Part shown: one piece after another, positions 3,556 through 23,102 of the stretch
Numbering within the stretch: position 1 is the stretch's first letter
How the letters are laid out: each line of letters begins with the position of its first letter
Source: Flavobacteriaceae bacterium
GTDB lineage: Bacteria > Bacteroidota > Bacteroidia > Flavobacteriales > Flavobacteriaceae
Direction of reading: 5' to 3'
DNA length: 32,000 nucleotides
Assembly: GCA_965224465.1 (NCBI GenBank)
Contig: OZ245049.1
Location: forward strand, 2,130,001 to 2,162,000
Position numbers and translations under genes: made by a program
The notes under the pieces: generated by a model
Databases searched by the model: none
What the model was told of the DNA's origin: nothing
The model's input: only the letters and a program-made list of their open reading frames with translations

Positions 3556-5058
3556 TTATTTATCAACAGGCTTCCAATTTTGAGGCAGTAACTCCGAAAG
3601 TTTATTAGCCTTATGTTCTGGTAATCTATTAAGGACATCACATAGCCACGTATGTGGGTTTACGTTATTCTTTTTGCAAGTAGCAAAAAAGCTATAAAAT
3701 AGAGCTATGTTTTGTGCGGACTCATGACTGCCAGCAAAGAGATAATTTTTTCTGCCAATAGCTAAAGGTCTTATGGCATTTTCTATATTATTGTTGTCTA
3801 TTTCAAACCTGCCATCATCGATGTATAGTTTTAGGTTTTGCCATATTTTAAGAGTATAAGCAATTGCTTTTCCTATGGCACTTTTAGGCAGTACGTTTTT
3901 TCGCTCTTTTGTAAGATAAATTTCTATTCCGTCTAAAACAGGTGATGCATGTTTTTCTCTATATGCTTTAGTTTGCTCAATAGTTAATTCTTGTTCTTTT
4001 ATTTTACGTTCTATCTTGTATAGCTTTTGAATTTCCAACAAAACAACATCCGCTCTTTTAGGATCATTATCCAGCGCCTTCTCAAAATACCGCCTAGCAT
4101 GAGCCATGCAACCTAAAAGAGTAATTTCTCCTTTTGTTGTTAAGTTTTGGTATGCAGCATACCCATCGGACTGTAGTGTCCCATTGAAATCTTTAAAAAA
4201 CTCTTCTGGAACAACTTTTCCTCTCCCTTTATTGTATTCAAAAAGAACTAAATTTTTAACAGGATTTCGATACACCCACATATACCCTCTGTGTGTTGAT
4301 TTTTTCTTGTCTTTATCTAAAACCTTTATAGGAGATTCGTCTGCTTGAATATAATTGGCATTTTCTAAAAACTGAGCCTTAAATGTATCGTATAAAGGAG
4401 CGATAAGCTCCGAACTTTTAGATACCCATCCTCCAATTGTTGATTTACTTACTTTTAAATCTTGTCGTTTAAAAATTTGAATTAATCTGTAAAGTGGTAA
4501 ATGGTCTACAAATTTTGAAATAAGTATAAAGGCCAATAAACTTGCTGATGCATTTCCTTTAGGTATCGGTAAGCTTGGTAATTCTGCTATAACAACGCCT
4601 TTTTCTTCCGGAAGTGCATATTTAGGTCTTACAATTCGTCTTACAAAAACGGAAAGAGGCGTTATTTCTAAAAGTTCTGTAACTTCTTCTCCTATTTTTA
4701 CAGCTCCTTCTTCTATGTGCTTAGGCTCTATAATCTCTTCTACTCGCGGAAAATGCGCAGGTATAGAAGAGCGAACAGGTTTTTTCTTTCCTTTCTTCTT
4801 TTGTTTTCTTTCGTAGATTACAATATGTTTTTTGTATGCCTCTTCTTTCTCAGCTATTATTTTTCCGAAAAGCGACAATTGATTTGTGTCAACAGGGATA
4901 AAACGTTCGCTTTTAGACCCGAAAACCATTCTTTTAAGCTGCTCGTATTGCTGCTTAATTTCAGCTAGTTCTTGAGCTGTTTTTTCAAGTTCAATCTTTA
5001 AAATTACCAGCTCTTTTTGTATGTCTATTGTATTGTTTTCCACACTATAAATATACAA
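3556..5058 (-). CDS. IS66 family transposase (TnpC)
   Basis: 500 aa. N-terminal coiled-coil/leucine-zipper region and a DDE core typical of IS66 (PLYRL, GYMWVY, LQSDGYAAY, GCMAHARRYF, ENAIRPLAIGRKNYLFAGS). Confidence 0.9.
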   Translation of the reverse strand: MYIYSVENNTIDIQKELVILKIELEKTAQELAEIKQQYEQLKRMVFGSKSERFIPVDTNQLSLFGKIIAEKEEAYKKHIVIYERKQKKKGKKKPVRSSIPAHFPRVEEIIEPKHIEEGAVKIGEEVTELLEITPLSVFVRRIVRPKYALPEEKGVVIAELPSLPIPKGNASASLLAFILISKFVDHLPLYRLIQIFKRQDLKVSKSTIGGWVSKSSELIAPLYDTFKAQFLENANYIQADESPIKVLDKDKKKSTHRGYMWVYRNPVKNLVLFEYNKGRGKVVPEEFFKDFNGTLQSDGYAAYQNLTTKGEITLLGCMAHARRYFEKALDNDPKRADVVLLEIQKLYKIERKIKEQELTIEQTKAYREKHASPVLDGIEIYLTKERKNVLPKSAIGKAIAYTLKIWQNLKLYIDDGRFEIDNNNIENAIRPLAIGRKNYLFAGSHESAQNIALFYSFFATCKKNNVNPHTWLCDVLNRLPEHKANKLSELLPQNWKPVDK

Positions 5059-5101
5059 AAAACAAGACTAAATAGCAGGTAAAACCTACAGTTTTATTGA
5101 A

Positions 5102-5455
5102 TTATTTAGCCTCTAAATAACGTTCGTTTTTCTGAGTATTTATAATACTAATTCCGTCTAAAACCATAACCATTTGGGTATAACTCAAAACTACTAATCC
5201 ATCTTCAATGTCGTATTTTGGAAGCTCAAAAATACCTCGTTCCAATCGTTTATAATACAGTACAAATCCTCCAGGTCGCCAATGAAGAAGTTTTAGTTTA
5301 TTTTTTTGCTTATTGATAAATGCATAAACACTATTTCTATCTCGCTCTTGTTCCATGTGCTCACTAACTAATCCACTTAATCCATTAAATCCTTTTCGCA
5401 TATCAACTGCAGATAAGTGATAATAATACGTGTGTTCTGTACCTAATCCTAACAT
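5102..5455 (-). CDS. IS66 Orf2 (TnpB) accessory protein
   Basis: 117 aa with VDMRKGFNGL ... KLLHWRPGGFVLYYKRLERGIF, the hallmark of IS66 TnpB. Sits directly upstream of the transposase. Confidence 0.85.
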   Translation of the reverse strand: MLGLGTEHTYYYHLSAVDMRKGFNGLSGLVSEHMEQERDRNSVYAFINKQKNKLKLLHWRPGGFVLYYKRLERGIFELPKYDIEDGLVVLSYTQMVMVLDGISIINTQKNERYLEAK

Positions 5456-5620
5456 TTATATTTTCGTTTTTGTTTAGATGCAAAAATTAGATTATTTTTA
5501 ACTTCTTACAAGATGTAGTTCTCCGTACGCTTACGTTTTTAATACGTTTGCGCCTATTTATCACGCCATGTCTAAACAACCTCTTCAACTCTTTATAATA
5601 GAACAACTTCCTTTTACACC

Positions 5621-5676
5621 CTTAAATTCAACTAATAAACGCAACTTTTCGATTTGATTCTATGATGGTTATATTT
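5621..5676 (+). mobile_element. solo terminal remnant of the IS30-family element (inverted relative to the full copy)
   Basis: About 56 nt identical to the reverse complement of 29324-29379, the right end of the complete IS30 copy. No transposase is attached. The inner boundary is uncertain by about 10 nt. Confidence 0.6.
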
Positions 5677-5778
5677 GGAATTATTGACACCAGAAATCAT
5701 ATTCACATTCTTATCATAAGAAGTATCACCCCCTGTATTTGTCCGTCTTTAAAGCCGTAGGTTTTGCCTTTTCTTTTT

Positions 5779-5940
5779 AAAAATGATACAGGGAAATGTA
5801 TGTGTAGCCAGAGCATGTAAAAAACCACAACATTATTGCTGTGTTTTTTTTGTTTTATAAAAGCCTGCTTAACCGTTACACTTAATGGCTGCGTGGCTTA
5901 ACGTTGACAACACACAATAAAATCGTGCGACAGCGAGGGC
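5779..5940. repeat. repeat R, copy 1 (carries an internal ~24-nt deletion)
   Basis: Shares AAAAATGATACAGG..CATGTAAAAAACCACAACATTATTGCTGTG..AAAGCCTGCTTAACC..GGCTTAACGTTGAC..AAAATCGTGCG with the copies at 17731, 23877, 26002 and 29611. Confidence 0.8.
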
Positions 5941-6071
5941 GGGAATAGTTCATTGTTATTCAGCGTAGTTCAGCGCAACAAAACGATAAAATCAGTAGAA
6001 CCTTTGGGTTCACTAATTTTAATCGCTAGTCGTTAATAAACTTTATTTTTTCAGAGTGTAAGATGAATTTC

Positions 6072-7486
6072 GGTTGTGTAATTTAAACTCTGTCTGCTTG
6101 TTTTTTTCTACGTTTTAAAATAGTTCGATTTTCTCTTCATAAGGCTGCTTTAAAAATCGAACTATTTTAAAATGAGCCCCAGCGGCTAGCGTCACGAATT
6201 GCTTCCGTTTTTATGTAAATCCAACGTTATTCGATCTTCAAATTTAATATATAATTGTTGAATTGTCAAGCACCAATTATGTAAAGGGTTTGTCCATTTT
6301 TTTTCGATATTTTTTGTTGCTAAGTAAACAAGCTTTAATAGTGCCATATCACTGGTAAAAGCCCCTTTTGTTTTAGTTACTTTTCTTACCTGTCTATGAA
6401 AACCTTCTACTGCATTTGTTGTGTAAATTATTTTTCTGATAGGTTCTGTATACTGAAAAAACTGAGATAACTCTTCCCAATTACGGTTCCAACTTTCTAA
6501 AACTACAGGGTATTTTTCTCCCCATTTTTCTTCTAATTTCAATAACTCCAACTCAGCAATATCCTTATTAACAGCCTTGTAAACAAGCTTTAAATCTCGA
6601 ATAAATTCTTTTTGGTCTTTGGAAGCTATATACTTTAAAGAATTACGAATTTGATGAACAATACACTTTTGAATTTGTGTTTTAGGAAATACACTCAAGA
6701 TAGCTTCTGAAAACCCTTTTAAGTTGTCTGTACAGGCAATTAGGATATCCTTAAGCCCTCTGTTATTAAGGTCTGTCAATACTTGAAGCCAAAAATTTGC
6801 GCCTTCACTTTCTGAAATATACATTCCTAAAACCTCTTTGATCCCTTCTTTATTTACTCCTAAAACATTGTAAAGTGCTTTGTGTTGTATTTTACCGTCT
6901 ACTTTTACCTTGTAATGCATAGCGTCAAGCCAAACAATGCAGTACATCTGTTCTATTGGACGACTTTGCCATTGTTTTATATCTGGTATGATCTTATCTG
7001 TAATTTGACTTAAAACAGTGTGTGATATATCTGTATCATACATCTCTTTTATATGACCAGAAATATCGCGTAAGCTCATTCCTAGGCCGTATAATCCAAT
7101 GATCTTATCTGATAAATTATCTGCTAAAATGGTTTGACGCTTTTTTATCAGAACAGGCTCGAAACTACTATTTCTATCCGCTGGCGTGCTTATTTCAAAA
7201 CTACCAATACTAGTTTTAACAGTCTTTTTGCCCTTTCCATTACGTTTATTCCCTTTAGAACATTCCTCTTCACTAAGGTGTGATTCCATTTCTGCTTCCA
7301 ATGCTTTCTCAAGAAATTGTTTCATTAAAGGAGCAAAGGCACCTTCTTTTCCGAATAAACTTTTTCCTGATAATAATTGATCCAATGCCTTTTTTTCAAT
7401 GTTGGCTAACTCGTCTTTTGTCATGTTTTCTGTTTGAATAAAGTTAATACTTTTTTTTATTCAGACAGAGTTGAGTTTACAGTCCC
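6072..7486 (-). mobile_element. IS256-family insertion sequence, copy 1 (1415 bp) with 8-bp TSD
   Basis: Imperfect IRs GGTTGTGTAATTTAAACTCTGTCTG and (reverse complement) GGGACTGTAAACTCAACTCTGTCTG. TSD TGAATTTC at 6064-6071 and 7487-7494. Same length as copy 2. Confidence 0.9.
6192..7424 (-). CDS. IS256 family (Mutator-like) transposase
   Basis: 410 aa with the typical IS256 N-terminus (GKEGAFAPLMKQFLEKALEAEMESHL) and DDE core (WLDAMHYKV, ACTDNLKGF, QKCIVHQIRN, TTNAVEGFHRQVRKVTK). Confidence 0.95.
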   Translation of the reverse strand: MTKDELANIEKKALDQLLSGKSLFGKEGAFAPLMKQFLEKALEAEMESHLSEEECSKGNKRNGKGKKTVKTSIGSFEISTPADRNSSFEPVLIKKRQTILADNLSDKIIGLYGLGMSLRDISGHIKEMYDTDISHTVLSQITDKIIPDIKQWQSRPIEQMYCIVWLDAMHYKVKVDGKIQHKALYNVLGVNKEGIKEVLGMYISESEGANFWLQVLTDLNNRGLKDILIACTDNLKGFSEAILSVFPKTQIQKCIVHQIRNSLKYIASKDQKEFIRDLKLVYKAVNKDIAELELLKLEEKWGEKYPVVLESWNRNWEELSQFFQYTEPIRKIIYTTNAVEGFHRQVRKVTKTKGAFTSDMALLKLVYLATKNIEKKWTNPLHNWCLTIQQLYIKFEDRITLDLHKNGSNS

Positions 7487-8059
7487 TGAATTTCTTAAAA
7501 GAAAATCAAAAGTCTCAAAGTAAGGTAAACTCCAATTTGGTCTATAGTCAAGAAAGCTACCTCCATCATATTCTTTATCATCTAAAGAATAGTAATACCA
7601 GTAATCATCAGATTTAAACCGATATTCAGGTTCATATCGTTTTGTGTATATTAAATAATGTATTGTAGGTGTTTTTTTAAAAAAAAGAAAAACTCGATTT
7701 ACACTAAATTCATATAAGTTATTATTATACGTAGTTTCTGTATAATAGAACCCTTTTTTTATTAAATATTTTGAAATTGAAATTATATCACTATCATTTG
7801 TGATTTTTTCAATTTCAGTTAGGTTAATGCGACAATAATTATCAGTTTTTAATTTGTTTACACGATCATAATTTTTAATAGAAAATGATTTAATTTTATC
7901 TAAATATCCTGTGTTATAGACTTCGGTATATATTTCACCATATTGATGTCTATTCTGATACACTTTATCGAATTTTATTTTTTTGTATTGAACATATATA
8001 CCTAAAAAAAACAAAGCAGATAACAGTGTAACGATTGTATTTTTCTTATTAATTTTCAT
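7457..8059 (-). CDS. membrane-anchored immunity candidate for the 426-aa effector; 3' end replaced by the IS256 insertion
   Basis: N-terminal TM helix (IVTLLSALFFLGIYV). The start overlaps the effector stop (TAATG). The last 10 codons (GTVNSTLSE + stop, 7457-7486) are IS256 sequence. Reading across the TSD restores the original tail ...FLLRNSSYTLKK*. Confidence 0.6.
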   Translation of the reverse strand: MKINKKNTIVTLLSALFFLGIYVQYKKIKFDKVYQNRHQYGEIYTEVYNTGYLDKIKSFSIKNYDRVNKLKTDNYCRINLTEIEKITNDSDIISISKYLIKKGFYYTETTYNNNLYEFSVNRVFLFFKKTPTIHYLIYTKRYEPEYRFKSDDYWYYYSLDDKEYDGGSFLDYRPNWSLPYFETFDFLLRNSGTVNSTLSE

Positions 8060-9339
8060 TAATCTTTATTTATTTCTATTTCATTGGTAGTCAAGTTACC
8101 GTTAAAACTATATATAATTGGAACATAAGTTATAAAAGGCTTATATCCTCTTAAATGCTGAAGTATATACCAACAAATAAATTCTTCATTCTTTCTTATA
8201 TAATCTTTTAAAATATCTCCAGAATCTAAACCAAAATGGTCAGATATTTCTAATCTAAATTTTCCTTTATAAGAATTGTTATCAAAATAAAATTCAGTTA
8301 GAGATATATCATAAGCTTGTGTTCCATCAATTGAAACACCAAGACCACCAAATTTATCTGGGTATTTAAGGCTGTTAAGTTCCTGTAAACCTTTAATCCC
8401 TAAAACATCAGGATTACCTCCGGATTTTTTTTCATACTCTTTTCTTAAAAATTGATTTTTAGTGTTTTTAACCTTTAAATTAAATATGCTATTAGTATTT
8501 TCTTTTATTGCATTTTTCAATAACGGAGAAAAACCATTTATAAAATCTTTTGTTCTTTGATGATCTGAAACAGCATTTGTTAATCTAATATCTTGGTATT
8601 TGCTGCTTGTATCAATGTTTTTCTTAAAGTAATCAATCATGCTATGTAAATTGTCATCTAGTACTCCTAGTGCCCAATCATCGAGGTCATACTTAAGAAT
8701 CTCAAATAATTTATCATTTGAATATTCACTATATTCTTTAATAACATCCATTGCATAATTAACTCTTGAGTCTTTATCCACAACATCAACACTCTTACCT
8801 ATGTCGTCAAACCCTTTTTCTAAAGCAGTCTTTAATCTCGTTTTCTCTTTTGGATAGTCAATACCCAAGTTTTTTATATCTTGTCTAGTGCAGTTTTTTC
8901 CATTAGTATCATAACAAACACCCGCTCTTTTAACAGAGCGAGCAATTATCATTGGTAAATTAAGTATATTTACTTCTACAAAAACATCCTTATGAGGTAG
9001 GCCCCCTGCATAAGCGTATATCTTAAATTTTTCTTTCGGTTTCTCCGTTTTTATCTTAACTTTTAGTGTATCACCGTCTAGTTCTCCTCCCGAAAAAAGC
9101 TTATACGATTTACAATGGTCATCTTTATCATAGGAGATAGCCCAGTTAATTTTTTTGGGATTGACATTATTATTTCTTAAAGTAGCAACATAAATGTACT
9201 CTTTTTCTTTTTCTATATATTCTAACTTATTGTTAACTGTGTCAAAAGGCCCTTCTACTTTAACAACTACTCTTACAACCTTAGGCAGTTTAATCGTAGT
9301 TTTAGTATTTGGATACCCTTTTATTATTACTGTTGCCAT
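8059..9339 (-). CDS. T6SS-type effector: shared N-terminal 128-aa module plus DUF3289-like C-terminal toxin domain
   Basis: 426 aa. The N-terminal ~128 aa are almost identical to ORF 19287..19952. The C-terminal DHFGLD ... WYILQHLRGYKPF motif is shared with ORF 18559..19197. The start lies 2 nt after the ext2 stop. Confidence 0.65.
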   Translation of the reverse strand: MATVIIKGYPNTKTTIKLPKVVRVVVKVEGPFDTVNNKLEYIEKEKEYIYVATLRNNNVNPKKINWAISYDKDDHCKSYKLFSGGELDGDTLKVKIKTEKPKEKFKIYAYAGGLPHKDVFVEVNILNLPMIIARSVKRAGVCYDTNGKNCTRQDIKNLGIDYPKEKTRLKTALEKGFDDIGKSVDVVDKDSRVNYAMDVIKEYSEYSNDKLFEILKYDLDDWALGVLDDNLHSMIDYFKKNIDTSSKYQDIRLTNAVSDHQRTKDFINGFSPLLKNAIKENTNSIFNLKVKNTKNQFLRKEYEKKSGGNPDVLGIKGLQELNSLKYPDKFGGLGVSIDGTQAYDISLTEFYFDNNSYKGKFRLEISDHFGLDSGDILKDYIRKNEEFICWYILQHLRGYKPFITYVPIIYSFNGNLTTNEIEINKD

Positions 9340-9341
9340 AA

Positions 9342-9848
9342 TTAATTTTCTTGTAAAATTGCTTTTAATGGGATGGATTCAATATCGTTAGTGATTTGAA
9401 CTTCTAACGTATCGTTTTCTAGTTTTATTCCATTATGTTCATAATCTAATTTCTGATCATCTAAGTTAAACTTAAACGTTTTCCCCACAGCGTTGCTACT
9501 TTCTATTACGAGCATAATTTCTTCATCAACATCAATATCATTTTTTTCAAGTTCATTCCCCTCTAAATCTTCTATATGATATTTATTGATCTCTGGTTCA
9601 TCATTTAAAACTGTTGGTTCAACAGTATCTTCCTTAAAAGTTTCTCTCCAAGAGGCAGAATACACACCAAACGAGTTAGAATCTTCTACACCAGCACAGG
9701 TAATTTCTAAAGTTTCCGTCATTGGATCTGAGCCTGTAGAAGAAAAATTGGTTTTCCAATTTACAAGATGACAGTCATAGAAAAATATTTTTCTTGTTTT
9801 CCCTCCCAGAATAAATATTGCTTTTAATGGAGTCGTTACATTTATCTG
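9342..9848 (-). pseudogene. tssD: 5'-truncated tssD (from about codon 72) fused to C-terminal extension type 2
   Basis: The frame reads ...ILGGKTRKIFFYDCHLVNWKTNFSSTGSDPMTETLEITCAGVEDSNSFGVYSASWRETFKEDTVEPTVL, as in the full hcp genes, then a different 84-aa tail. It is open upstream to 9848. No start codon before the internal ATG at 9722 (track ORF 9342..9722). Confidence 0.75.
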
Positions 9849-10534
9849 TCAAATATAATATCTCCAAATAAATTAATTTCAAACTCTTTTTTAATAGAAA
9901 ACAACAAGTTAAACTCATTTGTTTTCTTGTTGTATTTTCTAACAAAATAAGTGTTGTTTTTTACTGTTTTTAAAAATTTTACATTTTTTAATTCATCTAT
10001 TCTATGATTGGTTTCTTTCCATGTTTTTCCATAATCACTAGAGTAATAAGTAACGTTTTTATCAAAGTCATAACATTCTAAAATTCCACTATTGATTGAA
10101 AGAGATTCATTTGAAAGGTTTCTATTAAAAGGTAAAATTTTCTCTATGTTTTTTTTGCTCCAATTACTACCATTATCAGTACTTATATATAAATATTGAG
10201 GAGACGTATCACCATCTGAATTCTTTTTAGAAACAAAAGAGATTGTTTCTTTAATTGTACCTAAGCCATCAAAGATATTTTCATATTCATTGAGGTTAAA
10301 CATTTTTATACTCCATGTTTTTCCTGCGTCATTTGAGATAAATAAATAAGGATTTATTGTTGTGAAAATAATTAAATCACCTTTTTCAATAACACCAGAC
10401 ATTCCTTGTATTTCATATATCTTACTAATAGCATAGTTATTCCATTCATATCTAAACAATCCATATATAAAAATACAGATAAGTATAATTACCATGGTTA
10501 CTATCGTAATTACCATTTTATATCTATTTTTCAT
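9842..10534 (-). CDS. membrane-anchored BNR/Asp-box repeat protein (immunity candidate for the NodB effector)
   Basis: N-terminal TM helix. Three SxDxGxTW-type Asp boxes (SNDAGKTWS, STDNGSNWS, SSDYGKTWK). The start is 1 nt after the deacetylase stop. Confidence 0.6.
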   Translation of the reverse strand: MKNRYKMVITIVTMVIILICIFIYGLFRYEWNNYAISKIYEIQGMSGVIEKGDLIIFTTINPYLFISNDAGKTWSIKMFNLNEYENIFDGLGTIKETISFVSKKNSDGDTSPQYLYISTDNGSNWSKKNIEKILPFNRNLSNESLSINSGILECYDFDKNVTYYSSDYGKTWKETNHRIDELKNVKFLKTVKNNTYFVRKYNKKTNEFNLLFSIKKEFEINLFGDIIFDR

Positions 10535-11315
10535 TTTAATAGTTACTTATAACATCAAAGTTATAGTTTTTCTTTTTAAGTTTTTTTATGAGTGCTTTTA
10601 GTTTGTCAGCTTCATTATTTCTAAAAGCTCTATCATGCATTAATAAAACAATTTTATTTTGTTTTTGAGAATTATCATATTCGAACCACCAGTGAGATGA
10701 AACATCTTCAATTTTATCAAAAACATCATCTGGTGAATCAGTAAGTTTATCAAAATCTTTGTATTCGTCAGAATAAAAATCTATAAAAGGATGCATTTCT
10801 GATTCATTACTCCAATTTAATGTATTGTTTGCTGCTTTTGTTTTAACTTGCTTAACTGCTTCATCATGTGCCTCAAAAGACATACTCCATTCTGTGTCCC
10901 ATCCATAAATAACATACTCTTTTTGGTGTAATAAATCGGCTTCGTCTAATGTATCCATATTGTTATCACTATCAGTAATTTGTATTTTAGGGTATCGCCA
11001 AGTGTTTCGCCCAGGGAATCTTGCTAATTTAATCTGATTACCTCCTAATAATTTATCAGTTTTTCTAAAATCTTCAAGAACACTTCTTCGTTCAAATGTC
11101 CCATCAGGTTTCTTACCTATTTTTAATCCCTCATTATAATAGTGTTTATAGAAATCATTTGCGTGGGAATAACTGTGATTAGCAATTTCATGATTTTCTT
11201 TTATTTCATTCAAAAGGGTTTCCTTTTCATCATTGCCGTAATGTATTCCATAATTAACAATATTGATGCCTGTTAAGAAAAACGTAGCTCTCACTCCTGT
11301 TTCTTTTAATACTTT

Positions 11316-12583
11316 GGTTCTACCACGATTTGTGTGGGTATAAATCTAAACCTCCATTAAAAAACAGTATTGCACTTCTAAAATTCACGAAAGTCCTGTA
11401 GCCTTTACCAATAGATTTTATTTCTTGTATTTTACCATTTAGTCTTTCTGCCATTGCATTAGAAGCAGTCTCAACCATTGCATTACACACCCCTTCTATA
11501 TGGTTATTAAACATCCTAGCAACCTTTATAATTTCTTTAATTTTTGTTTCCAAAACACTTGCTCCCCATTTGATAAAAAGACCTAAAGCAACTTTCAAGG
11601 ATGGACTTCTAAATATATTTTTAAAATTTTCTTTAGCTAACCATGCTTTACTTGCTTGATAATTTGCTTCTTGTATTTTGTCAAATAATACTCTTTGTTT
11701 ATCCGTTAAGTTTTCTTTATTTTTAAGCAATACAAATCTACTATTTTTAAGACCTTCTTCTTTTTTCACTTCACGTCTGCGAACTTTATCTATAGCATCA
11801 TTTAAGTACTTTACTAAGTGAAATCGATCATGGACAACTTTCGCTTTTGGAAAAACTTCTTTTACTGACGATAAATAGGCCTTCCACATGTCAATAGAGA
11901 CAGTCTCTACTTCATCTCTATTTATCTCATTTACAATCTTTTCAAGTAAAATTTTAGTCTCTTTTTTAGTCCTACCTTCTGCAACATCAATTACAATTCC
12001 TGTACTCGGATCACTAACTACAGTCACATAGTTATGCCCCTTTTTGAAAGCTTTTTCATCTATACTTAGATGAGAAAATCTTTGGTTTTCTGACCTATTA
12101 GAAAGCCCTCTTTTTACAGAAGTATGTATGATTCGGTTTACAATATTAAAGCCACAACGTAATAGTTTAGCCGTTTGAGTTTGATTTCTTGTTGCTTTCA
12201 ATAAGTCTATAGTTAGCCTTTCAAATAGGTAAGTATGACGATAAAAATTACTAGCCCATGGTACCGTTATCGTTTTAACGCCTTTAGTTGACTTAACTCT
12301 TGGGACTTTACAATTAATGTAGGTTTTGAATTGTAAGGTGTCTAAATGACGCCATCTACGAGTACTTCTATGATCATAAATACTACACAACTCTTCTGTG
12401 TCTGGACAAGATGCTCTTGTTGGTAGATAGTCTATAAATATGTCTATTTCTGAATCTAGATAATTAACTTTTACATCACAAACCTTCCAATCTGTTCCTA
12501 AATTTAATAGTAACTCAAACAGTTTTGTTGAAAACATCTTTTTGAGGTAAAGATACTAATTCCACAACATTCGTGGTAGAACC
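11316..12583 (-). mobile_element. ISL3-family insertion sequence (1268 bp) with 8-bp TSD
   Basis: IRs GGTTCTACCACGATTTGTGTGG and (reverse complement) GGTTCTACCACGAATGTTGTGG. TSD AATACTTT at 11308-11315 and 12584-12591. Confidence 0.9.
11320..12537 (-). CDS. ISL3 family transposase
   Basis: 405 aa. Has an RRWRHLDT zinc-finger-proximal region, SIDEKAFKKGHNYVTVV, SIDMWKAY, HDRFHLVKYL and MAERLNGKIQEIK motifs, as in ISL3 transposases. Confidence 0.9.
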   Translation of the reverse strand: MFSTKLFELLLNLGTDWKVCDVKVNYLDSEIDIFIDYLPTRASCPDTEELCSIYDHRSTRRWRHLDTLQFKTYINCKVPRVKSTKGVKTITVPWASNFYRHTYLFERLTIDLLKATRNQTQTAKLLRCGFNIVNRIIHTSVKRGLSNRSENQRFSHLSIDEKAFKKGHNYVTVVSDPSTGIVIDVAEGRTKKETKILLEKIVNEINRDEVETVSIDMWKAYLSSVKEVFPKAKVVHDRFHLVKYLNDAIDKVRRREVKKEEGLKNSRFVLLKNKENLTDKQRVLFDKIQEANYQASKAWLAKENFKNIFRSPSLKVALGLFIKWGASVLETKIKEIIKVARMFNNHIEGVCNAMVETASNAMAERLNGKIQEIKSIGKGYRTFVNFRSAILFFNGGLDLYPHKSW

Positions 12584-12722
12584 AATACTTTTAATATTTC
12601 CTTTGTTCCTGGCTGAATTCCATCATCAAATGTAAGAAAAACAGTTTTTTTCTTAGACACCTTAGGCAGTTTAATCGTAGTTTTAGTATTTGGATACCCT
12701 TTTATTATTACTGTTGCCATAA

Positions 12723-12998
12723 TTAATTTTCTTGTAAAATTGCTTTTAATGGAATGGATTCAATATCGTTAGTGATCTGAACTTCTAACGTATCGTTTTC
12801 TAGTTTTATTCCATTATGTTCATAATCTAATTTCTGATCATCTAAGTTAAATTTAAACGTTTTCCCCACAGCGTTGCTACTTTCTATTACGAGCATAATT
12901 TCTTCATCAACATCAATATCATTTTTTTCAAGTTCATTCCCCTCTAAATCTTCTATATGATATTTATTGATCTCTGGTTCATCATTTAAAACTGTTGG
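12723..12998 (-). pseudogene. orphan extension-2 fragment (no hcp core, no start codon)
   Basis: Frame PTVLNDEPEINKYHIEDLEG...IPLKAILQEN*, preceded directly by an in-frame TGA (12999-13001). Near-identical to 9342..9617 and 19955..20230. Confidence 0.75.
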
Positions 12999-13090
12999 TC
13001 ATAATTACTCAGCTTTCAGTGCAACAAGACGATAAAATTAGTCGAAGCCCACGAACCTACGTAATTTCAATCGCTAGGTATTAGGCAACG
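12999..13090. repeat. inter-cassette element S, copy 1
   Basis: 92 nt, by eye identical to 20231..20322. Contains the imperfect inverted repeat CGATTGAAATTA / TAATTTTATCG (read on the - strand). Diverged relatives at about 5955-6043 and 24095-24175. Confidence 0.6.
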
Positions 13091-13663
13091 TTATAATATT
13101 CCTAATTTTTTTTTAAATTCTTCTGTTATGTAGTGTTCTAGTTCATCGAAAGTAAAGAATACTTCATATAATGAAAAATCATTATCAGAGTCTCTTAAAT
13201 TTTCCACTAACCCATTCGTGAATTTTATTCCTAATACTTTTTTTTGATTTTTAGTGATAATCCATGGCACTGGAATTTCACTAATGGTAAACTCATCAGG
13301 GTATTCTTTATTTATTCTTTTTTGAATTGTATTTACAAGTTTATTATCTGTATTATTAAAGAAATCTTTAATTGTTATCAATTCTGAATTATCAATATTA
13401 AAATTATATATGTAAGAATATCCTGTTAGATATGCTGTATATGTTTCGATGTCTAATTGAATACTAACAATATGCTTATTAAGGAAATGAATTGCATAAT
13501 TACTATTATTAAATGAATAGCAATTATTTGAACAACATTTAGTATTCAAATAATCAGTAAAATTATTAATGGTCTTTTTTAAACTAATTGAATCAATTAT
13601 GTTTGCTTTATTAATAAAGACAAACTCTTCAACTTCCTTTTTTATAATATAATTAAGAATATC

Positions 13664-15078
13664 GGTTGTGTAATTTAAACTCTGTCTGCTTGTTTTTTTC
13701 TACGTTTTAAAATAGTTCGATTTTCTCTTCATAAGGCTGCTTTAAAAATCGAACTATTTTAAAATGAGCCCCAGCGGCTAGCGTCACGAATTGCTTCCGT
13801 TTTTATGTAAATCCAACGTTATTCGATCTTCAAATTTAATATATAATTGTTGAATTGTCAAGCACCAATTATGTAAAGGGTTTGTCCATTTTTTTTCGAT
13901 ATTTTTTGTTGCTAAGTAAACAAGCTTTAATAGTGCCATATCACTGGTAAAAGCCCCTTTTGTTTTAGTTACTTTTCTTACCTGTCTATGAAAACCTTCT
14001 ACTGCATTTGTTGTGTAAATTATTTTTCTGATAGGTTCTGTATACTGAAAAAACTGAGATAACTCTTCCCAATTACGGTTCCAACTTTCTAAAACTACAG
14101 GGTGTTTTTCTCCCCATTTTTCTTCTAATTTCAATAACTCCAACTCAGCAATATCCTTATTAACAGCCTTGTAAACAAGCTTTAAATCTCGAATAAATTC
14201 TTTTTGGTCTTTGGAAGCTATATACTTTAAAGAATTACGAATTTGATGAACAATACACTTTTGAATTTGTGTTTTAGGAAATACACTCAAGATAGCTTCT
14301 GAAAACCCTTTTAAGTTGTCTGTACAGGCAATTAGGATATCCTTAAGCCCTCTGTTATTAAGGTCTGTCAATACTTGAAGCCAAAAATTTGCGCCTTCAC
14401 TTTCTGAAATATACATTCCTAAAACCTCTTTGATCCCTTCTTTATTTACTCCTAAAACATTGTAAAGTGCTTTGTGTTGTATTTTACCGTCTACTTTTAC
14501 CTTGTAATGCATAGCGTCAAGCCAAACAATGCAGTACATCTGTTCTATTGGACGACTTTGCCATTGTTTTATATCTGGTATGATCTTATCTGTAATTTGA
14601 CTTAAAACAGTGTGTGATATATCTGTATCATACATCTCTTTTATATGACCAGAAATATCGCGTAAGCTCATTCCTAGGCCGTATAATCCAATGATCTTAT
14701 CTGATAAATTATCTGCTAAAATGGTTTGACGCTTTTTTATCAGAACAGGCTCGAAACTACTATTTCTATCCGCTGGCGTGCTTATTTCAAAACTACCAAT
14801 ACTAGTTTTAACAGTCTTTTTGCCCTTTCCATTACGTTTATTCCCTTTAGAACGTTCCTCTTCACTAAGGTGTGATTCCATTTCTGCTTCCAATGCTTTC
14901 TCAAGAAATTGTTTCATTAAAGGAGCAAAGGCACCTTCTTTTCCGAATAAACTTTTTCCTGATAATAATTGATCCAATGCCTTTTTTTCAATGTTGGCTA
15001 ACTCGTCTTTTGTCATGTTTTCTGTTTGAATAAAGTTAATACTTTTTTTTATTCAGACAGAGTTGAGTTTACAGTCCC
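13664..15078 (-). mobile_element. IS256-family insertion sequence, copy 2 (1415 bp) with 8-bp TSD
   Basis: Same ends as copy 1. TSD AGAATATC at 13656-13663 and 15079-15086. The intact paralog has a single AGAATATC at about 20888-20895. Confidence 0.95.
13784..15016 (-). CDS. IS256 family transposase (copy 2)
   Basis: 410 aa. Differs from copy 1 at two residues (C55R, Y304H). Confidence 0.95.
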   Translation of the reverse strand: MTKDELANIEKKALDQLLSGKSLFGKEGAFAPLMKQFLEKALEAEMESHLSEEERSKGNKRNGKGKKTVKTSIGSFEISTPADRNSSFEPVLIKKRQTILADNLSDKIIGLYGLGMSLRDISGHIKEMYDTDISHTVLSQITDKIIPDIKQWQSRPIEQMYCIVWLDAMHYKVKVDGKIQHKALYNVLGVNKEGIKEVLGMYISESEGANFWLQVLTDLNNRGLKDILIACTDNLKGFSEAILSVFPKTQIQKCIVHQIRNSLKYIASKDQKEFIRDLKLVYKAVNKDIAELELLKLEEKWGEKHPVVLESWNRNWEELSQFFQYTEPIRKIIYTTNAVEGFHRQVRKVTKTKGAFTSDMALLKLVYLATKNIEKKWTNPLHNWCLTIQQLYIKFEDRITLDLHKNGSNS

Positions 15079-15284
15079 AGAATATCAGATGATTTTTTTG
15101 AATCAAAATTAAAAAACGGAAGATTATAATTACTGAGGATTTCTCCATCACATACTATTGTATCTTTTATAGAACTAACTACAATTTTTGTTTTATTAGT
15201 AGTATTAATTTGACTTTTACAAGAAGTGGTCAATAATACTACTAGCAGAAAAATAATATAATTATTTATCTTTTTCATCTTCGT

Positions 15285-16559
15285 TTATTTTAGTTGTATT
15301 GGTTTTAATTTTAAATCTGAAGTAATTTCAAAAGGGATAACATTAATACCTTTGACGGTTGTTTTAATAGGATTTTGTTTGCGTAATTCTTTTAATAGGA
15401 TTTCTGCTTTTGGGTCTTTTAAATTTACAGTTACTGTTTTTCCTTTCACTTTAGTTTTAACCAATATATCTTTTGAAATAGCTAACAAGATATTTTCAAT
15501 TTCATCTTTTTGCTCTTTTGTTCCAGTCTTATGAATCTCTTTGTAATGTTTGTAAACTTTAAAAGCTTCATCGTCTTTTGCTTTTAATGTATAATCTTTT
15601 CTTTCTTCTATACCATTGGTTCCTCCATTAATTCTTTTGGACACTTTTTTTATACTATCTTTATTGGAATATTCATAAACCTTTCCATTGCCAATCATCC
15701 AATACCAAAGTGCAGATTGAGTAGCATAGATTGGATTTGCTTTGTCTTCTATTTTTTTTGAGTTTATAGCTTTAGTGAAATCTAAATTTACTGAAGCATC
15801 ATTAGAAAAAGGATGTTTTTTTCTGTAATCAGAAAAAATAGTGTAATTATTCTTTCCTGTTAATTGAATGATACCTCTACCTAGAAAATTGTAACCATCA
15901 TCACCTCCATTATGTCCCAAGTCTTTTCTGTTTGAATATTTCCTATTGGCTATTTCTTTTTCATTGTGAGAATGAGATAATACTTGAACATAAATAGTTT
16001 TCTCTTCGTTAAGGTAAATTTTTTCTTGATATTTCTTTTTTTTAGTATAACCATAAATATATGCTGGATTTAGCTTATCACAATTAGCATATTTATCTTT
16101 TTTATCTTTATCCTTTTTTTTATCAGCTTCTTTTCTGTTATCTATAATTTTGAATTTATCTTTATATGTCTTAATATTAGCGTCAGTAAGTTTTATTAGT
16201 TCGCTCTCTGTATAGTATTTCTTAAGACTAGATGGCTTATAAGCCATATCTTCTTTTAGAGTATAAAACTTTTTACTTTCAACTAGACATTGAGAAATAA
16301 AATGAGCTTTACGTAAGCAAGTATCTAGTTTATAAGTTTTTCTGTAGTCATTGAGGTACTTTATGATTTTTTTTGCTAAAATTTCGTTTACATTAGGTTC
16401 AATGTGTTTTATTTGCTCTATTGTTATTTCTTCTTTGCAGTAAGGGCAAGGTTCTGTTTTTTTTATGGTAAGAGGTGTTTCTTTGTACGGAAGTAACTCA
16501 CCGTTGTAATATACCCTTGGTATATAAGTTATTGTTTTAAGCTTTTTCTTTTCAGCCAT
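15285..16559 (-). CDS. GH19/COG3179-type (chitinase/lysozyme-like) peptidoglycan hydrolase effector, copy 1
   Basis: 424 aa. Pattern ITIEQIKHI-P-...LNDYRKTYKLDT-LRKAHFISQCLVESKKF...YSNRKDLGHNGGDDGYNFLGRGIIQLTGKNNY...ATQSALWYWM...RINGGTNGIEERK matches the phage/T6SS GH19-like lysozyme family. The start is 4 nt after the hcp stop. Confidence 0.75.
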   Translation of the reverse strand: MAEKKKLKTITYIPRVYYNGELLPYKETPLTIKKTEPCPYCKEEITIEQIKHIEPNVNEILAKKIIKYLNDYRKTYKLDTCLRKAHFISQCLVESKKFYTLKEDMAYKPSSLKKYYTESELIKLTDANIKTYKDKFKIIDNRKEADKKKDKDKKDKYANCDKLNPAYIYGYTKKKKYQEKIYLNEEKTIYVQVLSHSHNEKEIANRKYSNRKDLGHNGGDDGYNFLGRGIIQLTGKNNYTIFSDYRKKHPFSNDASVNLDFTKAINSKKIEDKANPIYATQSALWYWMIGNGKVYEYSNKDSIKKVSKRINGGTNGIEERKDYTLKAKDDEAFKVYKHYKEIHKTGTKEQKDEIENILLAISKDILVKTKVKGKTVTVNLKDPKAEILLKELRKQNPIKTTVKGINVIPFEITSDLKLKPIQLK

Positions 16560-16563
16560 GATT

Positions 16564-17232
16564 TTATTGTTTTAAAATTACTTCTCCATTTTCGTTAACG
16601 ATTCCTTTAAGTTCTATATTGTTTGTAGGATCATCATCTGCATCTTCTAATATTATTTTTAGTTCTTCACCTTCTTCTATATCTTTTACTTTTAAAAACA
16701 GTTGAGAATTAGAACTAATTTCAGCTTCTTTTATAGAGTTACCTTCTTCGTCTTTCCATTCTGTTTTTAGGATTTTAGGATTTTTTTCAATTTCTTGCTC
16801 TCTCTCTAATACTGTTGGTTCAACAGTATCTTCTTTAAAAGTTTCTCTCCAAGAGGCAGAATACACACCAAACGAGTTAGAATCTTCTACACCAGCACAG
16901 GTAATTTCTAAAGTTTCCGTCATTGGATCTGAGCCTGTAGAAGAAAAATTGGTTTTCCAATTTACAAGATGACAGTCATAGAAAAATATTTTTCTTGTTT
17001 TCCCTCCCACAATAACGGAATTAATATGTAATACTAGCTGTTTTGTTTGCCTGGAGGAAAAAGACCATTCCGTAAGATTTATGTCTTTTCTAGTTTCTAT
17101 AATTAGTTTAAAACCTAGAAATATAGGTGTCTGTGAGGGTCTGCCGTTAGGGTTTGCTCCTTGATTAAATCTGATCGTAAACAATAGTGCGTTTACTTCT
17201 TTTCCATCTATTATTAATGTTGCTTTTACCAT
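16564..17232 (-). CDS. tssD: T6SS-iii tube protein TssD (Hcp) with ~85-aa C-terminal extension type 1, copy 1
   Basis: 222 aa. Residues 1-~135 follow the Bacteroidetes TssD pattern (KATLIIDGKE, GRPSQ, IIETRKD, DPMTETLEI, SASW). The acidic beta-rich tail is not found in canonical ~130-aa TssD. Confidence 0.75.
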   Translation of the reverse strand: MVKATLIIDGKEVNALLFTIRFNQGANPNGRPSQTPIFLGFKLIIETRKDINLTEWSFSSRQTKQLVLHINSVIVGGKTRKIFFYDCHLVNWKTNFSSTGSDPMTETLEITCAGVEDSNSFGVYSASWRETFKEDTVEPTVLEREQEIEKNPKILKTEWKDEEGNSIKEAEISSNSQLFLKVKDIEEGEELKIILEDADDDPTNNIELKGIVNENGEVILKQ

Positions 17233-17294
17233 CGTTATTTTTTTCGTTTTAGGAAGGTGTTTTTAATGTTGCCAATAACCAGTGTCCAACATTG

Positions 17295-18116: not shown

Positions 18117-18578
18117 TTATTTTTCGTTTAAAGTAATTGTATCTTTAATGTTTTCAGGGTAGGTTAAATACCAAATATTAGGGTTACTTTCGGATCTTAA
18201 ATAACTTAAAGTCTCCCAATAGTCTTCTTCGCATCTTTCAATTATACTTTCAACATTTTTGAGATGTTTATAGTTCGCAAAATATCCTCTTGTGCAAGAG
18301 TTGTTTTCGAAAAACACAAAACCTAGTTCATTCACAGTAGTATTTGCAACAAGTATTTCTTTTATTCTTTTTCTTGCAAAAAATAAAAGAATAGAATCAT
18401 TATCTGTAGAGCTATAAGATAAACTATTTATTAAATAGGTCTCATAGATTGCTCCATTAGTTTGTTTTTCAGATAATATCTTTTTAGCATTAAAACTGTT
18501 ATCACAACTTATTAGAATAGTCATTAAGAAAAAAAAGCCTATTCTAATAATTATATTTTTATATTTTGTTTCTCTCAT
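18117..18578 (-). CDS. lipoprotein immunity candidate for the frameshifted DUF3289-like effector
   Basis: 153 aa. Signal peptide plus lipobox (MTILISC). The start overlaps the effector 3' end by 20 nt. Confidence 0.6.
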   Translation of the reverse strand: MRETKYKNIIIRIGFFFLMTILISCDNSFNAKKILSEKQTNGAIYETYLINSLSYSSTDNDSILLFFARKRIKEILVANTTVNELGFVFFENNSCTRGYFANYKHLKNVESIIERCEEDYWETLSYLRSESNPNIWYLTYPENIKDTITLNEK

Positions 18579-19952
18579 ATTTACCTTTATTTAGATTACC
18601 AGTAAATTTTTTTGTAAATTTTATATGAGTAATAAATGGTTTATAGCCTCTTAAATGTTGTAGTGTAAACCATGAAGAAAAAATGACTCTAGCACCTTTA
18701 AATAAGTTAAAGTATTTTTCTAAATCAGATTTATCTAATCCAAAGTGATCCCATAAAGTTACATCATACTTTATGTTGTATATATTATTTTCTAATTTAT
18801 ATTCTGTAACCTCAACTTTAGTAGCCCAAATATCATTTAATGCAATCCTTTGTCCTGCCAGTAAGTCTTCAAAAGAATCAAATTGTGGACGCATAAAGAA
18901 AATTTCTTTTCTTGTTGTTTTACTTATCTGAGTAGTTGTTTTTCCTTTTTTCCTACGATTTTTCAAATTGCTTGTTCCCATAAAGTCAATTTCATTTTCA
19001 ATTAGTCCTGACAGTTTCCCTTTGCTGTTTTTTAGTTTTTCAGCAATATAATCTTCTACTTCTTTGCAATAAGTAAGAGTAGATTGATGGTTTTTAATTG
19101 CATTTGTAAGTATATTAGATCGATAAACTCCTCCCTTATTTCTTTTAAATTTGGAAATCATATCTTTTATGTTAATTTCTAATTTCCCTTCAGCCATTAA
19201 GAGTACAACACCTTTTTCAAATTTTACGAAAAGCTCATTATCTGTGTAATTTTCGTTAAGATGTTTTATCTCTTCTCCAGCAGTATCTACAATAAGTTCT
19301 CAACTTTTAAGTACCATGGTACATTTTTGTAATCTATTTTATATATCTCTTCTTTACTATATAATGTTTTATCATATTTATCATCTTTATTGCTTAATGT
19401 AGAAGTAAAAAAAGTATTTGAAATATAATCTTTTTTTAGTTTATTTATAAAGTTATCAGGGTAAACTCTTCTAACTATATTTTCACCCTTTCCATATGTT
19501 AGGTCCTCTGCTATATCTGTTCCCTCATTATTTAATCCAGGCATCCTGAACATATCTATACAAATTGGTAAATTAAGTATATTTACTTCTACAAAAACAT
19601 CCTTATGAGGTAGGTTCCCTGCATAAGCGTATATCTTAAATTTTTCTTTCGGTTTCTCCGTTTTTATCTTAACTTTTAATGTATCACCGTCTAGTTCTCC
19701 TCCCGAAAAAAGCTTATACGATTTACAATGGTCATCTTTATCATAGGAGATAGCCCAGTTAATTTTTTTGGGATTGACATTATTATTTCTTAAAGTAGCA
19801 ACATAAATGTACTCTTTTTCTTTTTCTATATATTCTAACTTATTGTTAACTGTGTCAAAAGGCCCTTCTACTTTAACAACTACTCTTACAACCTTAGGCA
19901 GTTTAATCGTAGTTTTAGTATTTGGATACCCTTTTATTATTACTGTTGCCAT
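18559..19952 (-). pseudogene. DUF3289-like effector paralog split by a frameshift (track ORFs 19287..19952 and 18559..19197)
   Basis: The upstream ORF ends at TAG 19287-19289. The downstream frame is already open from 19299, 34 codons before its ATG. One indel within 19290-19299 would fuse them into a ~460-aa protein built like the 426-aa paralog. Confidence 0.7.
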
Positions 19953-19954
19953 AA

Positions 19955-20230
19955 TTAATTTTCTTGTAAAATTGCTTTTAATGGGATGGATTCAATATCG
20001 TTAGTGATTTGAACTTCTAACGTATCGTTTTCTAGTTTTATTCCATTATGTTCATAATCTAATTTCTGATCATCTAAGTTAAACTTAAACGTTTTCCCCA
20101 CAGCGTTGCTACTTTCTATTACGAGCATAATTTCTTCATCAACATCAATATCATTTTTTTCAAGTTCATTCCCCTCTAAATCTTCTATATGATATTTATT
20201 GATCTCTGGTTCATCATTTAAAACTGTTGG
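19955..20230 (-). pseudogene. orphan extension-2 fragment (no hcp core, no start codon), second copy
   Basis: Same breakpoint as 12723..12998: an in-frame TGA at 20231-20233 immediately precedes CCA ACA GTT. Confidence 0.75.
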
Positions 20231-20322
20231 TCATAATTACTCAGCTTTCAGTGCAACAAGACGATAAAATTAGTCGAAGCCCACGAACCTACGTAATTTC
20301 AATCGCTAGGTATTAGGCAACG
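20231..20322. repeat. inter-cassette element S, copy 2
   Basis: By eye identical to 12999..13090. Confidence 0.6.
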
Positions 20323-21087: not shown

Positions 21088-21093
21088 CTTCGT

Positions 21094-22368: not shown

Positions 22369-22372
22369 GATT

Positions 22373-23041: not shown

Positions 23042-23102
23042 CGTTATTTTTTTCGTTTTAGGAAGGTGTTTTTAATGTTGCCAATATCCACGTCCAACAT
23101 TG

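Follow-up and report, generated by a model that had tools for sequence, protein, structure and literature searches.

When an insertion sequence has cut a gene in two and left its neighbour intact, it may be asked what the pair once did for the cell. In the window analyzed here, that is, the whole stretch of 32,000 nucleotides (nt) taken from contig OZ245049.1 of a Flavobacteriaceae bacterium, a deacetylase gene is split by an insertion sequence of the ISL3 family, and is followed by an intact gene for a protein of 230 amino acids (aa) with BNR/Asp-box repeats. A first-pass annotation, made from the nucleotide sequence, had proposed that these genes represent an effector of a type VI secretion system (T6SS) and its candidate immunity protein. 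We consider it probable that the locus is an orphan effector–immunity cassette of the T6SSiii type, which combines a leader-delivered CE4 de-N-acetylase, predicted to act in the periplasm on peptidoglycan or lipid II, with the BNR protein as the putative immunity partner. The copy in the window is a pseudogene, a dead orphan cassette that has lost the toxin and kept the candidate immunity gene, and the inactivation by ISL3 is recent.

The deacetylase, the ISL3 element and the BNR gene are all located on the minus strand of the window. We excised ISL3 together with one copy of the duplication AATACTTT in silico, joining positions 12720..12592 to 11315..10536, and obtained one uninterrupted open reading frame (ORF) of 302 codons with no further lesion; an ORF of about 300 aa had been anticipated. 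The element is bounded by imperfect terminal inverted repeats, GGTTCTACCACGA(T/A)T(T/G)TGTGG, and harbors an intact 405-aa transposase (11320..12537), for which DDE_Tnp_ISL3 (PF01610, E = 1.3e-67) and the ISL3 Zn-ribbon (PF14690, 29.7 bits with a cut-off of 25.5, E = 8.3e-07) passed their cut-offs, and HTH_Tnp_ISL3 (PF13542) was sub-threshold (18.5 bits with a cut-off of 27.4, E = 0.0014). The position of ISL3 and the duplication given by the first-pass annotation agreed with these results. Because a perfect 8-bp duplication and matching inverted repeats coincide with the exact restoration of a conserved ORF, the insertion is real and not a product of chance. It follows codon 46 and separates motif 1 of the NodB domain from motifs 2–5; therefore, neither fragment can be active. 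The 5΄ fragment as present reads on into ISL3 to give a 54-aa ORF (12556..12720), and the 3΄ fragment alone cannot be active because it lacks the motif 1 aspartates, which provide the catalytic base and bind the metal.

The restored protein is predicted to be a metal-dependent de-N-acetylase of the CE4/NodB type without a Sec signal. The profile search suggested in the first-pass annotation gave a clear match to Polysacc_deac_1 (PF01522) at residues 22–144 (71.1 bits with a cut-off of 23.1, E = 1.1e-19), and the same profile was matched by 91 of 92 homologues. All five NodB motifs that had been read from the sequence are present, namely TFDDG (residues 30–34), HSYSH (90–94), RFPG (142–145), (W)DTEW (183–186) and LLMHD (267–271). 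In a family alignment of 52 sequences, D32, D33, H90, H94, R142, P144, W182, W186, L268 and H270 were invariant; these residues comprise the catalytic base, the Asp-His-His metal triad, the Arg and Pro of motif 3, the Trp pair of motif 4, and the Leu and catalytic acid His of motif 5. Motif 4 is a DxxW/GWDTEW variant, unlike the textbook DxxDW, and the GWDxEW type is also found in the chitooligosaccharide deacetylases of Vibrio (GWDVDW). An AlphaFold2 model of the restored protein (predicted local distance difference test, pLDDT, 93.3; predicted template modelling score, pTM, 0.89) shows a deformed (β/α) barrel, as in the CE4 fold. When this model was compared with the PDB, 57 matches were obtained at E ≤ 0.001, and all 50 of those listed were CE4-type deacetylases or esterases. 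The best were the Vibrio chitooligosaccharide deacetylases (E of about 1e-13, template modelling (TM) scores of approximately 0.5–0.57, 18–20% identity), followed by the peptidoglycan deacetylases Bc1974, PdaC and SpPgdA; Bd3279 of Bdellovibrio was also among the matches listed.

How such an enzyme might be delivered is indicated by its N-terminus and by the gene upstream. Its first 21 residues, MATVIIKGYPNTKTTIKLPKV, are identical to those of the two DUF3289-type effectors encoded at 8059..9339 and 19287..19952 of the window, in agreement with the effector leader noted previously, and the three effectors, each located behind an Hcp-ext2 sequence, diverge after this leader, which is predicted to form a β-hairpin (AlphaFold2 model). 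Hcp-ext2 is an extended Hcp (TssD), a class that consists of Hcp and a C-terminal extension of approximately 95 aa and displays several extension variants. The last ~92 codons of ext2 and the first ~21 codons of the effector constitute a repeat with 99% identity among three copies (9278–9619, 12658–13000 and 19890–20232), and on the basis of its sequence this repeat looks like a site at which recombination could exchange one effector cassette for another. Many marine Flavobacteriaceae, among them Tenacibaculum, Tamlana, Psychroserpens, Cellulophaga, Olleya and Algibacter, encode extended TssD proteins of 227–236 aa, at least five variants occur in the source genome, and an intact Hcp-ext2 of 231 aa exists elsewhere (P0251). 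Within the window, ext2 is present as 3΄ fragments only. The description of the deacetylase as Hcp-linked therefore stands for the leader and for the slot after ext2, and is to be qualified in that the sole link is a 3΄ fragment of the extended Hcp that has no promoter. For the same reason, that is, because only this fragment lies upstream, the cassette was an orphan before ISL3 arrived.

Relatives of the restored deacetylase were examined to determine the setting in which intact members are found. A homologue search retrieved 118 relatives, and when 1.84 billion representatives were searched with a profile, 302 proteins were obtained at E ≤ 1e-30, with about 45 of the 150 listed matching the profile over its full length; the subfamily is small. 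The nearest relative, P0001 (89% identity; locus L001), is encoded on a metagenomic contig in the order Hcp-ext2, deacetylase, BNR. It provides the related allele, free of an insertion, that the first-pass annotation had suggested looking for, with 1-nt indels within A-runs of the Hcp-ext2 and deacetylase genes (~1190–1270 and ~2530–2545) and with the conserved C-terminus NYHFDIISNY encoded in another frame; these indels are probably assembly errors and could be real. In a second locus (L003), P0003 (62%) is arranged as VgrG, a 268-aa protein, a DUF4280–deacetylase fusion and BNR within a complete T6SSiii locus (TssF, gp25, TssN, TssD and VgrG). P0002 (78%), P0013 (44%, a DUF4280 fusion), P0030 (42%, Flavivirga aquatica) and P0016 (41%, Chryseobacterium taeanense) are located directly after VgrG, and the deacetylase is immediately 3΄ of VgrG in L004, L085, L090, L091 and L098. 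P0004 (53%) lies on a GC-rich contig with PAAR, DUF4123, Tlde1 and VgrG (L092).

Accordingly, among the seven loci retrieved at ≥41% identity, six (L001, L003, L004, L085, L090 and L091) carry the deacetylase directly after Hcp or VgrG, and in the seventh, L092, a divergent VgrG gene is located ~0.5 kb away from it, which agrees with the antagonism setting previously proposed. Of the 12 loci returned by a scan with a back-translated ARFPGRNTW pattern, only two belonged to the family, namely L098 and L100 (the same locus as L092). A scan of genome contigs with the family alignment found no close relatives, the best loci among the matches listed being ~30% identical (Rhizobium, Chitinophagaceae and Clostridia). 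The closest ~48 of the 92 homologues have neither a signal peptide nor a hydrophobic N-terminus, and at least six kinds of N-terminal module precede the same catalytic domain, including Hcp-type leaders, modules that begin with MSRTRIV or MAGKIL, and four fusions to the PAAR-like DUF4280. Since polymorphic N-terminal adaptors on one conserved catalytic domain are a hallmark of toxins, this arrangement suggests a secreted toxin. The gene neighbourhoods thus link the deacetylase clade to the T6SS, and the effector assignment is well supported by the sequence comparisons.

A further kind of carrier was seen in three loci, in which the deacetylase is preceded by a protein of 842–1050 aa without a Pfam domain (L088, 4467..6995; L093, 3711..6863; L094, 3161..6058). 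Orphan copies of its C-terminal ~150 aa, 91–96% identical, are located at 8600..9059 and 12911..13372 of L093, and eCIS_core is encoded nearby in L094; the protein resembles a polymorphic delivery protein of a further kind. A Peptidase_M74 match in the 1008-aa fusion P0138 (E = 0.023) fell below the threshold and was not used as evidence.

The gene downstream of the deacetylase starts one spacer base (10535) past its stop codon (10536–10538), as had been noted, and its product is likely a membrane-anchored, periplasm-facing immunity candidate, judging from its sequence features. A basic stretch at the N-terminus is followed by a hydrophobic helix of ~21 residues; residues ~7–27 form a signal-anchor with the N-terminus inside and, from the charge distribution, the C-terminus outside, and the N-terminal helix in the model spans residues 2–35. 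The three Asp-boxes, SNDAGKTWS, STDNGSNWS and SSDYGKTWK, occupy positions 67–74, 118–125 and 165–172, and the D, G and W of each are invariant in six homologues. The protein matched Pfam BNR (PF02012) with 33.8 bits (cut-off 27), and its match to Sortilin-Vps10 was sub-threshold (31.8 bits, cut-off 33). The ectodomain of ~195 aa is all-β in a model built on a six-sequence alignment (pLDDT 74.6), the fold matches of which, to the propellers of sortilin Vps10 and Ycf48, were only partial (TM scores of 0.30–0.38). An ectodomain of this size would probably be too small for a full, closed propeller of 6–7 blades. A match to Tli3 (PF24316; 28.3 bits, cut-off 27) was rejected as an identification, since it rested on ~22 residues (160–181) covering one Asp-box, no stretch passed alone, and the partner here is a deacetylase and not the lipase Tle3.

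The BNR family is rare (six clusters among 5.8 billion proteins), and no relatives were found in metagenome contigs when these were scanned with the BNR alignment. Its gene adjoins a clade deacetylase in all four loci with a readable context, that is, the window, L001, L003 and L090, in accordance with the adjacency expected of an immunity gene in the first-pass annotation. Relative to the window copy, identity was 75% in L001, 54% in L090 and 37% in L003, where the homologue is 217 aa long. Between the window and L001, omega was 0.37 for BNR and 0.12 for the deacetylase, which indicates that BNR evolves faster. A second BNR copy, 87% identical (P0120), lies elsewhere on the same 5.24-Mb contig, and no intact deacetylase from this contig was among the homologues found; P0120 may be another orphan immunity gene.

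Other partners accompany the deacetylase in some relatives. One subclade encodes, directly 3΄ of the deacetylase, a small Cys-rich membrane protein of 83–132 aa with the motif CGESPLC, and Asp-box lipoproteins weakly similar to the BNR protein accompany the deacetylase in L088 and L093. L090 carries genes for both the small transmembrane protein and BNR; because its BNR is closer to that of the window (54%) than its toxin is (42%), the comparison suggests that the BNR gene there is an orphan immunity gene. The type of immunity protein seems to follow the toxin subclade. Because every immunity candidate faces the periplasm, the toxin is predicted to act there. The coordinates of these features and of those in the surrounding array are summarized in Table 1.

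Table 1. Location of the cassette, its neighbours and the alternative partner proteins (positions refer to the window unless a locus is named)
Feature	Position	Strand	Evidence or remark
BNR/Asp-box immunity candidate, 230 aa, intact	9842..10534	-	Pfam BNR, N-terminal anchor helix, synteny
Deacetylase, 3΄ fragment	10536..11315	-	Codons 47–302, NodB motifs 2–5
Deacetylase, 5΄ fragment	12584..12720	-	Codons 1–46: 21-aa Hcp-linked leader and NodB motif 1 (TFDDG)
ISL3-family insertion sequence, 1268 bp	11316..12583	-	Transposase profiles, terminal inverted repeats
Target-site duplication AATACTTT, perfect, 8 bp	11308–11315 (left), 12584–12591 (right)		Direct repeat
Hcp-ext2 (extended Hcp/TssD), promoterless 3΄ fragment, last ~92 codons	12723..13000	-	Directly upstream of the deacetylase start
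Hcp-ext2, 5΄-truncated, from about Hcp residue 75	9342..9800	-	Heads the next (DUF3289) cassette; downstream boundary of the deacetylase/BNR cassette
ext2 fragments in the window	9342..9800, 12723..13000, ~19955..20232		
Full extended Hcp/TssD genes, 222 aa each	16564..17232, 22373..23041		PF17642 at residues 2–116, C-terminal extension
424-aa effector after each full Hcp	15285..16559, 21094..22368		
Small Cys-rich transmembrane protein	L085 8109..8360; L091 8414..8686; L090 8445..8843; L098 ~8013..8261		

On this basis, a mechanism can be proposed. The 21-aa leader, encoded always right after ext2, would dock the enzyme to its cognate extended Hcp, and the complex would be fired into neighbouring cells. 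In the target periplasm, the enzyme would probably strip N-acetyl groups from the N-acetylglucosamine (GlcNAc) or N-acetylmuramic acid (MurNAc) of peptidoglycan or lipid II, and the loss of these groups would disturb lytic and synthetic enzymes that need them; a possible kill route is a block of lytic transglycosylases and other enzymes requiring the acetamido group. The producer would be protected by the periplasm-facing BNR protein, which probably binds and blocks the enzyme. After the loss of the toxin, the immunity gene would be expected to stay intact if it is still useful against neighbours with a live toxin.

De-N-acetylation of peptidoglycan or lipid II appears to be the most likely action of the enzyme by analogy with its relatives and neighbours. 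This substrate is favoured because one homologue (P0176) joins a signal peptide, PG_binding_1 and the clade deacetylase in a single protein, because the Chitinophaga homologues are linked to the gene of a GT51 peptidoglycan glycosyltransferase, and because the neighbouring effectors of 424 aa are predicted to target peptidoglycan. We note as an observation on one of these loci (L086/L087, Chitinophaga pendula, 4840..8502) that the deacetylase gene, which is flanked by those of the GT51 transglycosylase and a NodS-like methyltransferase, overlaps the 3΄ end of the former (727 aa), and that lanthipeptide genes lie upstream; this region may be a glycan-modifying biosynthetic cluster.

Several results weigh against the proposed cassette and its mechanism. 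The window copy is dead, the Hcp-ext2 upstream of it is merely a 3΄ fragment, and an intact, identical Hcp-ext2 was not seen in the source genome. The model of the BNR protein is of only moderate confidence with partial fold matches, and the identities of BNR and toxin are discordant, since the toxin of L003 is 62% identical to that of the window and its BNR only 37%, with the reverse order in L090. Some effector loci have no BNR gene, a small transmembrane protein being encoded instead in L085 and L091 and nothing being found in L092. The Chitinophaga homologues (36%) are not linked to the T6SS and start directly at the catalytic domain, and lipoproteins with a signal peptide make up a group that is more distant still. 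Moreover, chitin oligosaccharides and not peptidoglycan are the substrates of the nearest structural relatives, and de-N-acetylation of peptidoglycan normally protects against lysozyme rather than kills.

The structural matches bear on the alternative that survives best, in which the protein is an antibacterial T6SS deacetylase toxin with another N- or O-acetylated envelope glycan or a lipid-linked intermediate as its target. The candidates would be O-antigen or capsule units on undecaprenyl phosphate, the lipopolysaccharide core or periplasmic chitooligosaccharides, and the cell would die because the carrier lipid is trapped or the outer membrane is damaged. The enzymes with the top fold matches deacetylate short GlcNAc oligomers and have the long loops that characterize CE4 enzymes for short substrates; sequence similarity to one of them, 4ny2, extends over several segments (RLPYTNGWR, GWDVDW), and immunity candidates that are all periplasmic are compatible with any envelope substrate. 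However, the PG_binding_1 fusion, the GT51 linkage and the peptidoglycan-directed neighbouring effectors point to the wall, and peptidoglycan deacetylases are the next-best structural matches, so that we regard this alternative as unlikely, although it is the strongest competitor.

The same Vibrio matches could indicate an anti-eukaryotic or anti-fungal effector, or a nutrient enzyme, that makes chitosan from chitin or chitooligosaccharides, the BNR product then being no immunity protein but an accessory or unrelated protein of the envelope. For marine Flavobacteriaceae-type organisms, from which the relatives come, chitin would be a plausible substrate in the environment. This explanation is nevertheless improbable, because a periplasm-facing partner gene, separated by a 1-nt spacer, has been kept with the toxin across BNR identities of 37–75%, and the partners of other subclades differ and yet are also located in the envelope, which is the signature of an antibacterial effector–immunity pair; in addition, the deacetylase is a single-domain protein without the chitin-binding domains that trail the catalytic domain in the Vibrio enzymes. 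Least probable of all is that the protein is no toxin and remodels the producer's own wall, as a housekeeping or T6SS-accessory enzyme for apparatus assembly or for resisting lysozyme-type effectors: distant members in settings without a T6SS (beside GT51 and NodS-like genes in Chitinophaga, or as signal-peptide lipoproteins) and the support of type IV secretion by peptidoglycan deacetylation reported for Legionella (PMC10266036) are compatible with it, but without a signal peptide neither the window protein nor the ~48 homologues nearest to it could use Sec to reach their own periplasm, the delivery modules are polymorphic and include DUF4280, a PAAR-like domain that belongs to the spike expelled by the T6SS, the genes fill the variable position immediately behind Hcp or VgrG, and the leader is common to the deacetylase and the DUF3289 toxins.

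We compared the cassette, read as a T6SS deacetylase toxin with a BNR immunity candidate, with known systems. No experimentally characterised T6SS deacetylase effector was found in the openly searchable full-text literature, which fits the earlier remark that deacetylases are outside the described T6SS cargo classes. A PgdA-like T6SS candidate of Salmonella SPI-21, CLA-10-1_4787, has been predicted in silico (PMC13304343); as in the window, a polysaccharide-deacetylase protein was proposed as a T6SS effector from its genomic context, whereas it belongs to a proteobacterial T6SSi, and the passage that describes it mentions neither an immunity partner nor a family analysis. In the literature search, a putative polysaccharide deacetylase was also listed among the T6SS effector genes of Aliivibrio, and a polysaccharide deacetylase of Yersinia pestis proved to be an unrelated entry in a proteomics table. 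The available part of the 2012 catalogue of polymorphic toxins makes no mention of deacetylase or NodB, and its authors state that they knew of no β-propellers among immunity proteins (PMC3482391).

The pairs Tae/Tai, Tge/Tgi, Tlde1 and Tse1–Tsi1 resemble the cassette in that an effector without a signal peptide is encoded beside Hcp, VgrG or PAAR with the immunity gene immediately 3΄, and wall-targeting T6SS pairs share with it a probable action in the target periplasm and a periplasmic immunity protein. In contrast to Tae, Tge, Tlde1 and Tse1, the window enzyme is predicted to be a metal-dependent CE4/NodB de-N-acetylase and not a bond-cleaving hydrolase. The immunity candidate also differs from known T6SS pairs in being a BNR/Asp-box protein, and a comparison with solved immunity proteins gave no match in sequence. 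Tsi1 is a partial β-propeller that blocks Tse1 (PMC3391265); thus, the earlier statement that a β-propeller immunity partner would be unusual has to be softened by this precedent, and the BNR ectodomain is in any case probably too small for a full propeller.

Among the CE4 enzymes, the Vibrio chitin oligosaccharide deacetylases (COD; VcCDA/COD, 4ny2, 3wx7 and 8yfp) share with the window enzyme the RxP..N.WR and GWDxxW motif variants and long active-site loops; they differ in being Sec-secreted proteins of ~400 aa with C-terminal carbohydrate-binding domains and a role in chitin catabolism. Membership of the COD subfamily was rejected on the grounds of 18–20% identity, a length of 302 as opposed to ~400 aa, and the lack of a signal peptide and of an extra domain. 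PgdA, PdaA, PdaC, Bc1960/Bc1974 and Bd3279 have the CE4 fold and catalytic residues in common with the window enzyme, but they are Sec-exported and act on their own wall, or on that of the prey from inside the prey periplasm, and neither delivery by a T6SS nor an immunity partner is known for any of them. Bd3279 of Bdellovibrio is a precedent for deacetylating the wall of another bacterium during antagonism.

With respect to delivery, Hcp2–Hcp3 heterohexamers of Bacteroides fragilis bind conserved N-terminal regions of adjacent V1 effectors (PMC13035841). The window is similar in having a specialised Hcp beside a variable effector slot and a common N-terminal module on differing toxin domains; it differs in that a single Hcp with a ~95-aa C-terminal extension and a 21-aa hairpin module would make the contact. 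Orphan Rhs and CdiA cassettes, which are also arrayed, likewise have their toxin and immunity genes placed behind a 3΄ fragment of a delivery gene that lacks a promoter, and a near-identical repeat, here ext2 and leader, may serve as the recombination handle. In those systems the toxin is the C-terminal tip of the delivery protein, whereas here it has an ORF and a start codon to itself, and the delivery gene is Hcp rather than Rhs or CdiA.

The cassette is located in a T6SS effector array that is dense in insertion sequences (GC content of the window, 30%). Duplication is evident at several scales: 12658–13667 duplicates 19890–20899 with 5 mismatches, the block 15079–17277 is duplicated at 20888–23086 with 25 mismatches, and two full Hcp genes head duplicated cassettes. 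The 424-aa effector that follows each of them is predicted to be an endolysin-like, muramidase-type effector, since a PDB sequence search matched it to the phage endolysins 9ms7 and 4ok7 (E from 1.8e-16 to 5e-11) and Pfam gave no match; an initial guess of GH19 was dropped for the same reasons. Of the two DUF3289 effectors with the leader, the first is a single ORF of 426 aa, and the other is split into a 221-aa part with the leader and a 212-aa part with DUF3289 (18559..19197), the two copies diverging after ~128 aa.

Two 1422-bp IS256-like copies (6070..7491 and 13662..15083), in the same orientation and with 3 mismatches, bracket a 6.2-kb segment (7492–13661) that holds the DUF3289 and deacetylase/BNR cassettes, a layout that resembles a composite transposon. 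ORFs at 3556..5455, 28282..29286 and 30377..31982 read like transposases of the IS66 type (with a small accessory ORF), the IS30 type and the IS21 type, names that were assigned by reading the translations and not by profile; should they prove to be insertion sequences, such elements would be packed unusually densely in this region. A scan for sigma-70 promoters and terminators found fewer sites than in shuffled sequence, the model being inapplicable to Bacteroidota promoters.

The known T6SS wall toxins cut bonds, as amidases, muramidases or L,D-carboxypeptidase/transpeptidase enzymes, and a deacetylase toxin, if confirmed, would alter the wall chemically rather than cut it. We tentatively entertain, at slightly less than an even chance, the broader proposal that de-N-acetylation of peptidoglycan or lipid II is a previously untested mode of T6SS killing, in which the wall would be made unreadable to the target's remodelling enzymes, and which would be carried out by a small CE4 clade with at least four delivery modules and countered by a new BNR/Asp-box immunity family. 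The putative modules are the extended-Hcp leader, the VgrG-adjacent modules, the PAAR-like DUF4280 and the 842–1050-aa carrier. If this is the case, it raises the question of which essential step in Gram-negative bacteria needs the N-acetyl groups of peptidoglycan or lipid II. The BNR protein would then be a ready-made inhibitor of CE4 enzymes, and bacterial peptidoglycan deacetylases are factors of lysozyme resistance and virulence. The deacetylase family offers a natural experiment in effector modularity, in which one catalytic domain is combined with several delivery adaptors, and an extended Hcp with matching effector leaders is indicated as a delivery scheme in Flavobacteriaceae. The pseudogene in the window is valuable because it points to this family and exemplifies how a toxin can be lost while immunity is retained.

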